A stretch of 64,000 bases of DNA from an uncultured Clostridia bacterium (GTDB lineage: Bacteria; Bacillota; Clostridia; TANB77; CAG-508): the NCBI GenBank assembly GCA_944393465.1, contig CALYAG010000001.1, positions 1,709 through 65,708 of the forward strand, in the 5' to 3' direction. The notes beneath the pieces are model-generated. The model was not told the origin of the DNA and did no database searches. It saw only the letters and a program-made list of their open reading frames with translations. Positions 11,383 through 55,036 of the stretch are shown piece after piece. Every line of letters begins with the position of its first letter. The stretch's first letter is position 1. The position numbers were made by a program, and so were the translations under genes.

Positions 11383-12522
11383 ATGAAAGAAATTGGAATT
11401 TACATTCATATACCTTTTTGTAAATCTAAATGCATTTACTGTGATTTTAATTCATTTGCACAAAAAGATGATTGTATTGAACCATACATAAAAGCGGTAA
11501 AAAAAGAAATAAAAGAATATGCTAAAAAAAATGAAGATATTTTAGTAAAAACAATATACATTGGTGGAGGTACTCCTTCATATATAAAGGAAAAGTACAT
11601 AAAAGATTTATTAGAAACTATAAAAGAAAATTTTGAAATATTGCCAAATGCAGAAGTAAGTATAGAAGTTAACCCAGGAACAGTAAACAGGCGAAAACTT
11701 GACTGCTATTATAAAGTAGGCATAAATAGGCTAAGCATAGGGCTTCAAAGCACAAATGATAAATTGCTAAAGCTAATGGGCAGAGTTCATGATTTTGAAG
11801 ATTTTTTAGAAACTGTAAGACTTGCTAATACTGTAGGCTTTTCAAACATAAATGCAGACTGCATGATAGGACTTCCAACTCAAACTATTTATGATGTAGA
11901 AGAAACTTTAAATGTATTAATTAATTTAAGACTAACGCATATTTCAGTATATTCACTAATAGTTGAGGAGGGCACTCCTTTAGAAAAGAAAATTACATCA
12001 GGAGAATTAAAATTGCCAGATGAGGAAATAGAAAGATATATGTATTGGTTTGCAAAAAGAAAGCTAGAAGAAAATGGCTATTTACACTATGAAATATCAA
12101 ACTTTGCAAGGCCGCTTTTTAGGTGCAAGCATAATTTAGACTGTTGGAATCAAAAGGAATACAAAGGTTTTGGCGTATCCGCAAGCTCATATGAAAATGG
12201 AGTAAGATATACTAATATTCCAAGTATAGAAAAATATATAAAAAATGTAGAAGCGGGTAAATTTAAAGAAAATTATATAGTAGAAGAAAAGCAAGATAGA
12301 GAAGCCATGATGAAAGAATATATGCTTTTAGGTCTTAGAAAAATAACAGGAGTAAATATCACAGAATTTAGAAGAAAATTTGGAACAACACCGCTATACA
12401 AATATAATAAAGAATTGGCAAAACTTATGCAGGAAGGCTTAATTGAGGCTAATGAGCACACCATAAGACTTACTAAACGAGGATTAGATTTGGCAAATGT
12501 GGTATGGGAAGAATTTGTGTGA
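11383..12522 (+). CDS. hemW: radical SAM heme chaperone HemW (HemN-like)
   Basis: 379 aa. YIHIPFC.SKC.YCDF (a CxxxCxxC motif) and the GGGTPS motif are present. Confidence 0.85.
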   Translation: MKEIGIYIHIPFCKSKCIYCDFNSFAQKDDCIEPYIKAVKKEIKEYAKKNEDILVKTIYIGGGTPSYIKEKYIKDLLETIKENFEILPNAEVSIEVNPGTVNRRKLDCYYKVGINRLSIGLQSTNDKLLKLMGRVHDFEDFLETVRLANTVGFSNINADCMIGLPTQTIYDVEETLNVLINLRLTHISVYSLIVEEGTPLEKKITSGELKLPDEEIERYMYWFAKRKLEENGYLHYEISNFARPLFRCKHNLDCWNQKEYKGFGVSASSYENGVRYTNIPSIEKYIKNVEAGKFKENYIVEEKQDREAMMKEYMLLGLRKITGVNITEFRRKFGTTPLYKYNKELAKLMQEGLIEANEHTIRLTKRGLDLANVVWEEFV

Positions 12523-12695
12523 TTTGTAACAAAAATGTAATATAAAATGGCTTGACTAAAAATAGGTGTAAGTGTAAAATTAAAATGTAAATTTCAAAAT
12601 TCGATGAACAAAGTATCAAATTGAAAAAATAATAATAAAATTCAAAAGAAAAGGGAGAATAAAACATATGAAAATCGCTGAAACCCTTGCGGCTG

Positions 12696-12717
12696 TATAT
12701 ATATATATATATATATT
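12696..12717. repeat. (TA)10 microsatellite
   Basis: An uninterrupted tatata... run, lying inside a 17-codon mini-ORF (12668-12721) that has an AAGGGAGA RBS. Confidence 0.9.
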
Positions 12718-12842
12718 GTAAAATTTAACCAAATAAAAATATGTAAACATAGAGATAAAACTATGCTTTTTAGACGTATTTAAAATTCGTTTAAACTGCA
12801 TAGTTTTTTGTGTATGCAAAAAGATTTTCAGTAGGAGATTTT

Positions 12843-13002
12843 CTGTCGGGGACGTGCCTTAAATGGAGAATAATTTCCGTCGGGGACGTGCCTTAAATGG
12901 AGAATAATTTCCGTCGGGGACGTGTCTTAAATGGAGAATAATTTCCGTCGGGGACGTGTCTTAAAATGAAAATCTACTGATTTTCATTTTAGGACCGTCC
13001 CC
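12843..13002. repeat. 4 x 34-bp tandem array ending in a palindromic GGGGACG(G/T)..TAAAATGAAAA unit
   Basis: Units start at 12843, 12877, 12911 and 12945 (ccgtcggggacgtg[c/t]cttaaatggagaataattt). The last unit pairs with attttcattttaggaccgtcccc at 12980-13002. Confidence 0.9.
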
Positions 13003-13050
13003 AGAGGAAAATCAAATAAAAATTATAACAAATGAAAGGAAGAATTTATT

Positions 13051-14335
13051 ATGAGTTTAAAGAGAACAAATTTAAAAGAAAGTAAAATTACAATGAAAAA
13101 ATTGAAAAAGCAAGTAAAGCGGAATTACACTTATAGCGTTAGTCGTTACAATTATTGTCCTTTTGATTTTAGCTGGAATAGCACTTAATTTAACAATAGG
13201 GCAAAATGGCATCTTCAGTAGAGCAGAAAAGGCAGCCAATACATGGAGAAATGCAGAAACAAATGAACAACTAGCCTTAGGAGAATTAGGAAACTGGATA
13301 GGTAACTATTTAGGAGAAAATGGAAATGGTGGAAGCCAAGGCGGTAGCAATGGTGATGACCAAACAGGAACTACAGTAGTAGACGGAGTGCCAATACCAG
13401 ATGGCTTTTACTATGTAGGTGGCAAAAAAGATACAGGTCTAGTAATATCAGATAATTCAGCAGACGCAAAATATCAAAATCAAGAAATAGTTCCAGCAGA
13501 CGGATTGATTGGAAACCAATTCGTATGGATACCAGTAGATAATTCAGCAGAAGAAAATTTTAACAAGGTGTTTCAAAGACAAGAAGGGTATTGGAATGGT
13601 AAAAAAGATTCAATACTATCTACATGTGGAGAAGCAAATGCTGAGGGAAAAAATGCAAACTTAACAGAAACAACAACAACGCAAACAGAAGCAAAAGCAA
13701 TGTATGCAAGTGTATATAAAAATGGAGGCTTTTACGTAGGAAGATATGAAGTAGGAAAAGATACTTCAGGAGTAATAGTAATAAAAAAAGGAACAGAAGA
13801 AAACCAAGTAAATCCATATAATAATATTCCTTGGTCGGCAAATGGACAAATGCAAGAAACTACTGGAACAGATGGAGGAGCAGTAGAAATATCTAGAAAT
13901 TTTGATAGTGCAAATAATTATACAAGTGTAACAAGTACATTAATATATGGAGTACAATGGGATGCAATAATGAATTTTATAGATCCAAATTATATAACAA
14001 ATGCAACAATAGGAACCCCAAATTGCCAAGATAGTTCATACGTAAAAAATAGTCAGGGAAAAGGAAACTACAATGAAAGCCAAAATACAAATACATGGAA
14101 AAATCAAGTAGCACCTTGTGGTTCAAGTGATGATTATAGAATGAAAAATATATATGATTTAGCAGGAAATGTATATGAATGGACAATGGAGGCGTACTCT
14201 ACTCTCAGTCGAGTTGTTCGTGGAGGCGTTTACCTCGGTTCCGGCTCGTACAATCCAGCTTCTCGTCGTGGCCGCAACTCTCCAGGCGACGACGACGTCG
14301 ACTACGTCGGTTTCCGTGTGGCTTTATATTTGTAG
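13051..14335 (+). CDS. surface-anchored FGE/SUMF1 (C-type lectin fold) protein with a DGR-type variable C-terminus; +1 frameshift at 13120
   Basis: An ATG at 13051 with a GAAAGGAAG RBS gives MSLKRTNLKESKITMKKLKKQVK. The frame then changes at aag-C-gga to GITLIALVVTIIVLLILAGIA, a pilin-like N-terminal anchor. The downstream frame opens only at 13118. The C-terminal domain carries GFYVGRYEV...GNVYEWT...RVVRGG...GFRVA. Confidence 0.65.
14190..14322 (+). other. candidate DGR variable region (VR)
   Basis: In 14191-14320 I count 77/130 G+C and only 18/130 A, against an AT-rich background. It has runs of NNC codons (GGC GAC GAC GAC GTC GAC TAC GTC) between RGG and GFRV. Confidence 0.6.
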
Positions 14336-14515
14336 ATACTTACAGCTAAAGCCGCTAAACTAGCCATAGTTGACTAAAGCAGTGGGAATGCTCAAAGTAT
14401 GAACATTGACAAGAACGGATGCGTTTTAGACGTAAAAAGATGTATAGAAAGTTTAAATAAAGAAAGATAGACTTTAAAAATGCTTATGGAAGATTATGTC
14501 AAACGAAAAAACTGC

Positions 14516-14545
14516 TTGACAAACATATAAAACATAGTGTATAAT
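14516..14545 (+). promoter_or_regulatory. promoter of rplU-rpmA
   Basis: TTGACA (14516-14521), 18-nt spacer, extended -10 TGTATAAT (14538-14545). Confidence 0.55.
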
Positions 14546-14551
14546 ATATAT

Positions 14552-14650
14552 CTGTAAACCGCCTAAGTCGGGTAGCTAAATTCTAGCTGGTTGCTAGATA
14601 CCTTGCATTTATGCTTAGCGAGTATGAGAACGGAGGAGGTGCACTAAAGC
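14552..14650 (+). ncRNA. probable ribosomal protein L21 leader
   Basis: A GC-richer structured leader between the promoter and rplU (gcctaagtcgggtagctaaattctagctggttgctag...). The position matches the Firmicute L21 leader. Not verified against a covariance model. Confidence 0.45.
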
Positions 14651-14653
14651 CCT

Positions 14654-14971
14654 ATGTACGCAATAATAGAAAGTTGTGGTAAACAATACAAAGTTTCAGA
14701 AGGAGATGTAGTTTACTTTGAAAAATTAGATGCAGAAGAAGGCAAAAAAGTTACATTTGATAATGTAGTTCTAGTATCTGATGACAAAAATGTAAAAGTA
14801 GGAACTCCATATGTAAAAGGTTGTAAAGTTGAAGGAACTGTAGTAGCTCATGGTAAAGGAAAGAAAATAATCGTTTACAAATACAAAGCTAAGAAAAACT
14901 ACAGAAGAACTCAAGGTCACAGACAACCATATACTAAGGTTGAAATTAAGTCAATCAAAGTTGCAGAATAA
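14654..14971 (+). CDS. rplU: 50S ribosomal protein L21
   Basis: 105 aa beginning MYAIIE..GKQYKV.EGD, with ...[11 protein letters not shown] later. Confidence 0.95.
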
Positions 14972-15070
14972 TTTTTAATTAACAAAAAGTTAATTTATTT
15001 CGCAAATTTATAAATGGCAAAACTAAATAAAACATAGCCATTAATATATTTTAAAGGTAGGTGAAAATAC

Positions 15071-15412
15071 ATGGCACATCATAAAGGTCAAGGTAGTACC
15101 GATAACGGAAGAGATAGTGAGTCAAAAAGACTTGGTATAAAGAGAGCTGACGGTCAATTAGTTAATGCAGGAAACATTTTGTTTAGACAAAGAGGAACAA
15201 AAATGCATCCAGGTACTAATGTTGGTATCGGAAGCGATGACACTTTATATGCAAAAATTACCGGTATAATGAAAGTTGAAAGACTTGGAAAAGATAAAAA
15301 GAAAATTAGTGTTTATCCAGAAGCACAAGTAAAAGCTGCAAAAACAGAAAAATCTGAAAAGTCAGCTAAAGTTGCAAAAGTAGCAAAAACTAAAGCTACA
15401 GCAAAGGCATAA
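15071..15412 (+). CDS. rpmA: 50S ribosomal protein L27 (no N-terminal propeptide; K/A-rich C-terminal tail)
   Basis: Starts [24 protein letters not shown]. The C-terminal extension is [25 protein letters not shown]. Confidence 0.95.
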
Positions 15413-20375: not shown

Positions 20376-20552
20376 TTTTTTCAGTTGGGGACGGTCCTAA
20401 AACGAAAAAAGTTGCTTAGGCCCAACAATATGTCAATTGGGGACGGTTCTAATTGACAATTTTCGATTTAGGACCGTCCCCAAACGAAAATATTGTCAAA
20501 TGGGACGGCTCTAAATGACAATTTTCATTTTAGGACCGTCCCAAAACGAAAA
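20376..20552. repeat. cluster of GGGGACGGTCCTAAAA.GAAAA palindromic repeat units
   Basis: Six half-sites in alternating orientation: cagttggggacggtcctaaaacgaaaa, caattggggacggttctaattgaca, tttcgatttaggaccgtccccaaacgaaaa, caaatgggacggctctaaatgaca, ttttcattttaggaccgtcccaaaacgaaaa. Confidence 0.9.
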
Positions 20553-20716
20553 AATTAAAACTATTTTTGCAAATCATTTGACAAATGATTTTTGTTATAA
20601 GATAATATAGCTAGACAAAAACTAAAGAGCAAAAAATTCTTTTTTGAGAAATCTTTTTATTTAATTCATTAAGTAAAAATCTCAAAAATGAAAAAATTAC
20701 CAAGGAGGAAAATAAA

Positions 20717-23313: not shown

Positions 23314-23518
23314 TCAGTTTGCATTTTTTAGTTTGCTTTTTCAGTTTGCCTTTTTCAGTTTGCCTTTTTCAGTTGGCCTTTTTCAGTTGGGGACGGTCCT
23401 AAAATGAAAAAAATACAATATTTTCGTTTTAGGTCTGTCCCAAATTGAAAATTTTTTCATTTTAGGACCGTCCCCAACTGAAAATTTTCATTTTAGGACC
23501 GTCCCCAACTGAAAAAAT
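23310..23518. repeat. reiterated TTTTTCAGTTTGCC 13-14-mers merging into three GGACCGTCCCC palindromic units
   Basis: ttttcagtttgc appears about 5 times and decays into tttttcagttggggacggtcctaaaatgaaaa. Then come ttttcgttttaggtctgtcccaaattgaaaa and two copies of ttttcattttaggaccgtccccaactgaaaa. Confidence 0.9.
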
Positions 23519-29463: not shown

Positions 29464-29617
29464 TTCTGCTTGACACGATTAATTTATACTTTATTCGCCA
29501 AACAATATATCTATTTTCACATTCTCGGCGCGGGTCGCTGCTTGCTCCAGCTTGAGAATGAAAAATAGACATATTGCTTTGGCTTTTAAATATAAAAAAG
29601 TATGTGTCAAACAGAAC
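29464..29617. repeat. GC-core palindromic element (87-nt core 29497-29583) inside an outer inverted repeat
   Basis: The core gccaaacaatatatctattttcacattctc-GGCGCGGGTCGCTGCTTGCTCCAGCTT-gagaatgaaaaatagacatattgctttggc matches 54902-54988 at 86/87 positions. The outer inverted repeat is gttctgcttgacac / gtgtcaaacagaac. Confidence 0.9.
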
Positions 29618-54848: not shown

Positions 54849-55036
54849 TTTTTTCAGTTTTTTTCAGTTGGGGACGGTCCTAAAATGAAAAAGTTGCTTA
54901 TGCCAAACAATATATCTATTTTCACATTCTCGGCGCGGGTCGCTGCTTGCTCCAGCTTGAGAATGAAAAATAGATATATTGCTTTGGCTTTTGTCTTTAT
55001 ATTTTTTCGAAAAAGGACCGTCCCCAACTGAAAAAA
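54849..55036. repeat. composite repeat: 87-nt GC-core element (54902-54988) nested between two halves of a GGGGACGGTCC palindromic unit
   Basis: tttttcagttggggacggtcctaaaatgaaaa-agttgcttat-[core]-ttttgtctttatattttttcgaaaa-aggaccgtccccaactgaaaaaa. Confidence 0.9.

Follow-up and report, generated by a model that had tools for sequence, protein, structure and literature searches.

The window, that is the whole 64-kb stretch of DNA analysed here (from an uncultured Clostridia bacterium), is a piece of core chromosome with the gene order infB, rbfA, nrnA-like, truB, prmC, whiA, hemN-like radical-SAM, target, rplU, rpmA, U32 peptidase, glgP and pyk, in which "target" stands for the gene whose 3′ end concerns us. 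The rplU gene starts at position 14654, downstream of the target, and has a promoter-like site at 14516-14545. The features of the locus are collected in Table 1.

Table 1. Features at the hemN-rplU site, in window coordinates, and the observations that define them
Feature	Position	Strand	Basis
Short upstream ORF with the original N-terminus (MKKLKKQVK...)	13051-13191	+	Alignment with intact genes in L001 and L006
Main ORF of the DGR target protein	13163-14335	+	ORF list; 390 codons from TTG; C-terminal part FGE-sulfatase/C-type-lectin-like
Variable region (VR)	14190-14323	+	blastn with the L001/L102-type template repeat (TR): E=1e-25, sole match in the window
IMH-like 3′ end of the VR, GGTTTCCGTGTGGCT	14309-14323	+	15 nt identical in VR and TR; VR-TR homology stops right after
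Stem-loop overlapping the VR end, GTGGCTTTA/TAAAGCCGC, 9 pairs	14318-14355	+	DNA folds of the window, L001 and L091
About 100 nt past the stop codon, still homologous to cassette-bearing loci	14336-14436	+	blastn of L001, L003 and L091 ends at 14436

An earlier note on this DNA had taken 13051-14335 for one gene, which turned out not to be the case: the stretch is not a single ORF, the ATG codons at 13051 and 13093 lying in a different frame from the main ORF. Near 13120, one inserted nucleotide (AAAGCGGAATT at 13116-13126 vs. AAAA-GGTATT in L001 and L006) shifts the leader into a different frame from that of the membrane-anchor segment GITLIALVVTIIVLLILAGI, with which the main frame begins. 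This N-terminal frameshift is common to every allele at the hemN-rplU site, even the very divergent ones of L091, L003 and L092, and the split gene (an ORF of 45 aa followed by one of 390 aa) is also called in L087-L101. Despite the frameshift, the downstream ORF remains open throughout. Programmed +1 frameshifting or slippage on an A-run was considered as a means of rescue and rejected, as none of the candidate sequences (AAG CGG A; A6 and A5 runs) makes a convincing slippery motif.

The N-terminus of the target protein is a pilin-like membrane anchor, while residues 290-387 of the main ORF match the Pfam family FGE-sulfatase (PF03781, E=3.8e-8). The best sequence match in the PDB is human SUMF2/pFGE (1y4j), a weak one (E=0.003) over residues 314-387. 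The VR thus sits at the C-terminus of a predicted C-type-lectin/FGE-sulfatase fold. Homologues of the protein number 4051, nearly all of them in ENA metagenome assemblies, and an alignment of 26 shows hypervariability at fixed positions within an otherwise invariant scaffold, WTME..S...RV.RGG....SGS..PAS.R....P.......GFRVALYL.

The earlier note had drawn attention to an abrupt GC-rich, A-poor tail of this gene and to a run of NNC codons between the scaffold residues, and both observations hold. The 133 nt from 14190 to 14322 contain 19 A, 41 C, 38 G and 35 T, i.e. 59.4% GC and 14.3% A, vs. 29.1% GC and 41% A for the window as a whole; this puts the segment within the uppermost 0.16% of all its 133-nt windows by GC content and within the bottom 0.03% by A content. 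Its codons, which read as they had been given, are mostly NNC or NNT (GTT TAC CTC GGT TCC GGC TCG TAC ... GGC GAC GAC GAC GTC GAC TAC GTC). They lie between the scaffold residues W-T-M-E...RVVRGG and GFRVALYL, and the protein end encoded by the segment reads WTMEAYSTLSRVVRGGVYLGSGSYNPASRRGRNSPGDDDVDYVGFRVALYL.

The prototype of the DGR mechanism is the Mtd/Brt/bAvd system of Bordetella phage BPP-1. The closest homologue of the target protein, P0001 (88% identity), is encoded inside a full DGR cassette on contigs L001 and L002, and this cassette contains a 132-nt A-rich repeat, GAAGGCTAACTCTACTAACAATCGAGTTAATCGTGGAGGCAATTACAACAATTCCGGCTCGAACAATCCAGCTTCTAATCGTAACAACAACAATCCAGACAACAACAACGACAACATCGGTTTCCGTGTGGCT, with the core CGAGTTAATCGTGGAGGCAATTACAACAATTCCGGCTCG. 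This TR, which we compared with the VR, was taken from L001, L102 and other related contigs, not from the window's own genome. Over 131 aligned positions the window VR and the L001 TR are identical at 103 and differ by 28 substitutions, 27 of which fall on TR adenines, although only 46 of the 131 TR positions are A (binomial P ~1e-11). The window VR additionally has one extra codon, a 3-nt insertion in the AAC run. With 27 of 28 substitutions at the adenines of a real TR, the segment is a DGR variable region, and a purely compositional origin is excluded. The proposal of a DGR-type VR made in the earlier note is supported by the TR of a complete Avd-RT-TR cassette lying beside the closest homologue. 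One might still take the tail for a GC-rich coding element conserved with the lectin fold, or for a stretch of foreign base composition, as the scaffold residues are conserved family-wide and the sequence is the same among conspecific strains. However, neither idea accounts for the adenine-specific substitutions, for variation between alleles that is confined to TR-adenine positions, or for a cassette adjoining the closest homologue; we consider such an origin refuted and extremely improbable.

The 3′ end of the VR, to judge from the comparison with the TR, is a GC-rich IMH-like element with a stem-loop close by (Table 1). The 9-bp stem (14318-14326/14347-14355) is the same in the window and in the cassette-bearing L001 and L091, which makes it a candidate DGR target hairpin, with a function predicted from the folds. 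With both elements intact, the VR site looks homing-competent. An Rfam scan of 12400-15200 gave nothing relevant.

The length of the VR is not fixed: between CCA and GGTTTC it measures 7, 8 or 9 codons (P0127, P0143, the window and P0002), the window having 8, and P0127 has one extra codon elsewhere in its VR. All ten complete TRs sampled (L001, L102, L116 and L119-L125) have 7 codons, and an 8-codon TR variant was accordingly rejected as the source of the extra codon. Length changes are also seen in the cassette-linked genes P0127 and P0143. They may have arisen by slippage on the AAC repeats as the cDNA was made.

The absence of RT, Avd and TR from the 64 kb, reported in the earlier note, was borne out by our searches. 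There is no second copy of the segment in the window, the best ungapped identity on either strand being 60/146, and a gapped search with the real TR matches only the VR itself. No RT-like ORF with a YxDD motif is found in the window, and tblastn searches with the RT, Avd and accessory protein of the cognate cassette gave nothing below E=0.5. A complete DGR, with RT and TR in addition to the VR, is not found within the window. Beyond the window, a degenerate TR pattern that allowed either the VR base or A at each position had 0 matches in 185,579 species genomes, a set from which the window's species seems to be absent or masked and in which the closest relative of the protein is 71% identical, and the exact 63-nt TR core had 0 matches in JGI metagenomes and 0 in IMG/VR.

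The point at which the cassette is missing can be located in the roughly 100 nt that follow the stop codon and are still homologous to cassette-bearing loci. According to the folds, the terminator hairpin of L001 and L091 is disrupted in the window at about 14413-14421, and no terminator-like site was found after the target in the window. In four other loci (L097, L098, L099 and L101) the independent assemblies end 225 or 247 nt past the gene, corresponding to about 14560 or 14582 in the window; these shared ends suggest strain heterogeneity or a repeat boundary.

The cognate cassette is present in close relatives, both at the spoVA site and at the hemN-rplU site. At the former, in L001, L002, L102 and L116-L125, a 4.49-kb target-plus-cassette module lies between spoVAD and spoVAC, with the order target, 144-aa accessory gene, bAvd, RT, TR and 81-aa ORF seen in L001, L002 and L102. 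Comparison of L001 (9685-14175) with L106 (8058-8088) shows the module inserted in the spoVAC-spoVAD-spoVAE operon in place of a 30-nt spacer; no target-site duplication is obvious at the L001 module. Among 19 contigs whose flanks are 98-99% identical to L001, the site is empty in each of the 10 places shown, where 30 nt separate spoVAD from spoVAC. The cassette Avd matches the NCBIfam model DivGenRetAVD (3.5e-18), and the RT, of 335 aa, has the motifs IGNYTSQ and YMDD and shares no more than 36% identity with any RT of the GenBank phage set, Bordetella phage RTs being among the matches. The 144-aa accessory protein is conserved in the cassette and has no family match. The RT is intact (335 aa) in L102 and L116-L125, and the intact protein, P0144, is found on 17-18 contigs of the same cohorts. 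In L001 and L002, a 1-nt deletion (AGAAAAAAATT vs. AGAAAAGAAATT in L091 and L003; L001 12460-12500) splits it into 39 + 287 aa. About 110 nt of the upstream part of the L001 module resemble the dodecin-ruvA intergenic region.

At the hemN-rplU site itself, cassettes are found in a state of decay. The flanks of L091 and L003 are 99.7-99.8% identical to the window, and there an allele of the target is followed by the accessory gene, Avd and RT; of the pair only L091 has Avd, L003 being without about 425 nt that cover it. The RT of L091 ends at about codon 192, interrupted by three consecutive tyrosine-recombinase genes (407, 320 and 338 aa; L091 12952-16139), and the L003 contig ends at the same point of the RT. 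The recombinase insert of L091 resembles a recombinase-trio mobile element. A sister allele, in L004, L005 and L088, has flanks 98.5% identical to the window and a VR that differs from the window's at TR-adenine positions, so that diversification did take place in the past. This allele carries a 223-nt out-of-frame deletion (corresponding to 13999-14221; L004 1051/1052, L005 1221/1222, and L088), the right end of which is inside the VR at GGAGGC, and it is invariant across three samples. The deletion may be either a product of aberrant homing or an ordinary deletion. A further locus, L092, encodes a protein (P0130) whose non-VR part is the same as that of the cassette-less P0128; its VR scaffold differs, and a different cassette lies directly downstream. 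The 21 VR differences between P0130 and P0128 were considered as a case of rewriting in trans, a possibility that we rejected because L092 has its own cassette downstream and a different VR scaffold at non-adenine positions.

Variation among strains gives an indication of whether the VRs are still being rewritten. The cassette-linked proteins P0001, P0124-P0127 and P0129 have 0-2 differences outside the VR vs. 15-20 inside, and at least nine different VRs are found beside one conserved TR (including those of L118, L120, L123 and L124). The cassette-linked DGR, on this sequence evidence, is or recently was active. For the window's allele, by contrast with what is expected of an active target, an alignment of 13 loci, each from a different sample, over 13051-14560 shows 32 variable sites, of which 0 lie in the VR. 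The window VR is identical in P0121, P0128, P0132, P0135 (24 contigs read, all 24 with rplU downstream) and P0137, proteins that have up to 15 residue differences outside the VR, P0137 being identical to the window protein, and it is identical in about 38 contigs. Hypervariation specific to the VR between constant flanks is thus not observed among the 13 loci or the ~38 contigs. It should be noted that an identical VR also occurs in several samples for the cassette-linked P0124 (4 samples); sharing across samples is therefore weak evidence on its own, and the identity of the VR across otherwise differing proteins is the stronger observation. Elsewhere in the gene, a patch of 23 SNPs at 13806-13917 is private to the window vs. 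12 other strains with the same allele, and resembles a tract taken up by recombination from a more distant allele.

Non-VR dN/dS values are 0.2-0.27 vs. the cassette-linked gene and 0.47-1.0 among recent variants at the same site, the counts being small. Together with the frameshift and the 223-nt deletion allele, these show signs of relaxed selection on the target at the hemN-rplU site. In two samples in which both were assembled, coverage of the cassette contig was 4-5x lower than that of the cassette-less locus (64.3 vs. 11.8 in BRZ_IC and 20.1 vs. 5.3 in BRZ_HM, respectively, for locus vs. cassette), suggesting that the cassette belongs to a minority strain; this comparison assumes one species, an assumption indirectly supported by the same cohorts, GC content, dispersed repeat and shared module.

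The invariance of the VR, the decay of the gene and the low coverage of the cassette together favour a static orphan VR, and we propose, with a probability of about 0.7, that the segment is a fossil DGR variable region. Adenine-specific mutagenic retrohoming would have written the VR from a TR essentially identical to that of the L001/L102 type. The cassette would then have gone from the hemN-rplU site in the window's lineage, leaving only about 100 nt of cassette-side flank before the rplU promoter and a VR that, no longer changing, would be a relic. We infer that a deletion removed the cassette, unless recombination brought in the VR-bearing end, and that the window's own genome probably has no active cassette elsewhere. 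Several observations sit less comfortably with a fossil: the IMH and stem-loop beside the VR are intact, the ORF is open for 390 codons, the 8-codon length of the VR is absent from the sampled TRs, and the stretch of genome over which the cassette is seen to be absent amounts to 64 kb. As to import, the cassette might never have been at the hemN-rplU site in the window's lineage; homologous recombination with a cassette-bearing strain or a paralogue would have brought in the entire gene or just its 3′ end with the VR. The mosaic nature of the target gene, with its private 23-SNP patch, fits this idea, as do L091 and L003, which share the 5′ 366 nt at 92% and the remainder at about 80%, and P0123 and P0139, which join the 5′ part of one VR to the 3′ part of the window VR; the combination in L092 of a non-VR protein the same as P0128 with a different VR scaffold and cassette points the same way. 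We nevertheless find import rather doubtful, given that the cassette-side flank (14336-14436) has been kept and breaks off inside the terminator hairpin, which looks like a deletion scar, and that strains with 99.7% identical flanks carry the cassette at this very site.

The earlier note had left the choice between a remote target and a fossil; of the two, the fossil is favoured by the invariance of the VR, the decay of the gene and the presence of the cassette in a minority strain. For the locus to be a live target in trans, a cassette elsewhere in the chromosome, e.g. the 4.5-kb spoVA module, would have to be still rewriting the VR via the intact IMH and stem-loop that the window keeps. Remote targets are established for non-phage, chromosomal DGRs (PMC5758913): 45 of 372 DGRs have non-adjacent targets, some of them more than 100 kb away, and complementation in trans has been shown (PMC5758913). 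They also exist in this clade. In related MAGs, the TR of L032 (13458-13582) pairs with the VR of L013 (11046-11170) on another contig (mismatches 21 A, 4 C), and the TR of L029 (13305-13413) with the VR of L031 (10932-11045), again on another contig (mismatches 19 A, 2 C); the L031 VR adjoins a decayed cassette fragment. Both pairs are examples of true remote targets. Moreover, an RT is nearby at only 7 of 80 related target loci, genomes of this clade have several paralogous targets each, and the same cohorts contain the intact RT P0144. On the other side of the balance, the window VR is invariant in the 13 loci and ~38 contigs despite divergence elsewhere in the gene, in both shared samples the cassette contigs are covered 4-5x less deeply than the locus, the 10 places shown all have an empty spoVA site, the frameshift and the deletion allele speak of relaxed selection, and the VR has 8 codons vs. 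7 in every sampled TR. A live remote target is therefore, in our estimation, unlikely. A broader scheme would have the 4.5-kb target-plus-DGR module relocating between sites (the spoVA operon and hemN-rplU) and leaving behind homing-competent orphans that can be rewritten in trans, with RT slippage on AAC producing VRs of 7, 8 and 9 codons from a 7-codon TR; we hold this to be quite improbable.

The proposed fossil VR can be set against known systems. Chromosomal DGRs with targets of the C-type-lectin/FGE-sulfatase fold have been surveyed by Wu et al. 2018 (PMC5758913). Like them, the locus has a C-terminal VR in an FGE-sulfatase-type domain, adenine-only differences from an AAC/AAT-rich TR, and a GC-rich IMH followed by a stem-loop, and its cognate cassette has an Avd and an RT with IGxxxSQ and YMDD motifs. 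Unlike them, the window retains nothing beyond the target and its VR, the target protein has a membrane anchor of pilin-like type at its N-terminus, and the cognate cassette has an extra 144-aa gene and an RT no more than 36% identical to those of phages. Remote targets, of which the Treponema denticola DGR has seven (PMC5758913) and for which DGRscan-remote searches (PMC6602519), resemble the locus in that the VR-bearing gene has no RT or TR nearby, and relatives in the clade have paralogous targets and cross-contig TR-VR pairs. A remote-target DGR would, however, have a matching TR in the same genome and a varying VR, whereas the window VR is invariant across strains and its TR is known from relatives. 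The likeness to "inactive" DGRs in the metagenome survey of Roux et al. 2021 (PMC8144416) is a DGR-type locus free of VR-specific polymorphism. That survey required RT and VR on one contig, so that orphan VRs and remote targets were invisible to it; here, by contrast, RT is absent at the locus and related copies have decayed (recombinase-cut RT, Avd deletion, RT frameshift).

In its mechanism, which is already known, the locus is an ordinary DGR target of the C-type-lectin/FGE-sulfatase class, and its value lies in annotation and evolutionary bookkeeping rather than in new biology. DGR VRs can be recognized by A-depleted NNC runs at the end of an FGE-sulfatase domain, even with no RT nearby, and surveys anchored on RT miss orphan VRs, which are to be expected wherever DGRs are gained and lost. 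What the locus adds is a target family with a pilin-like anchor in uncultured low-GC Clostridia and, with its relatives, a small natural decay series that includes the intact module, the RT frameshift, the RT interrupted by three recombinases, the loss of Avd, the loss of the whole cassette and the erosion of the target.

Directly upstream of the target lie four tandem 34-nt repeats (12837-12972), the copy number of which depends on the strain. These repeats are members of a dispersed family of inverted repeats that is based on GGGGACGGTCC/GGACCGTCCCC and flanks several intergenic regions, with further sites at 12979-13012, 20376-20553, 23378-23516 and 54859-55035, and at 114-180 of L001. Two copies of a 91-nt direct repeat, at 29497-29587 and 54902-54992, are 99% identical and have a GC-rich hairpin-like core inside.
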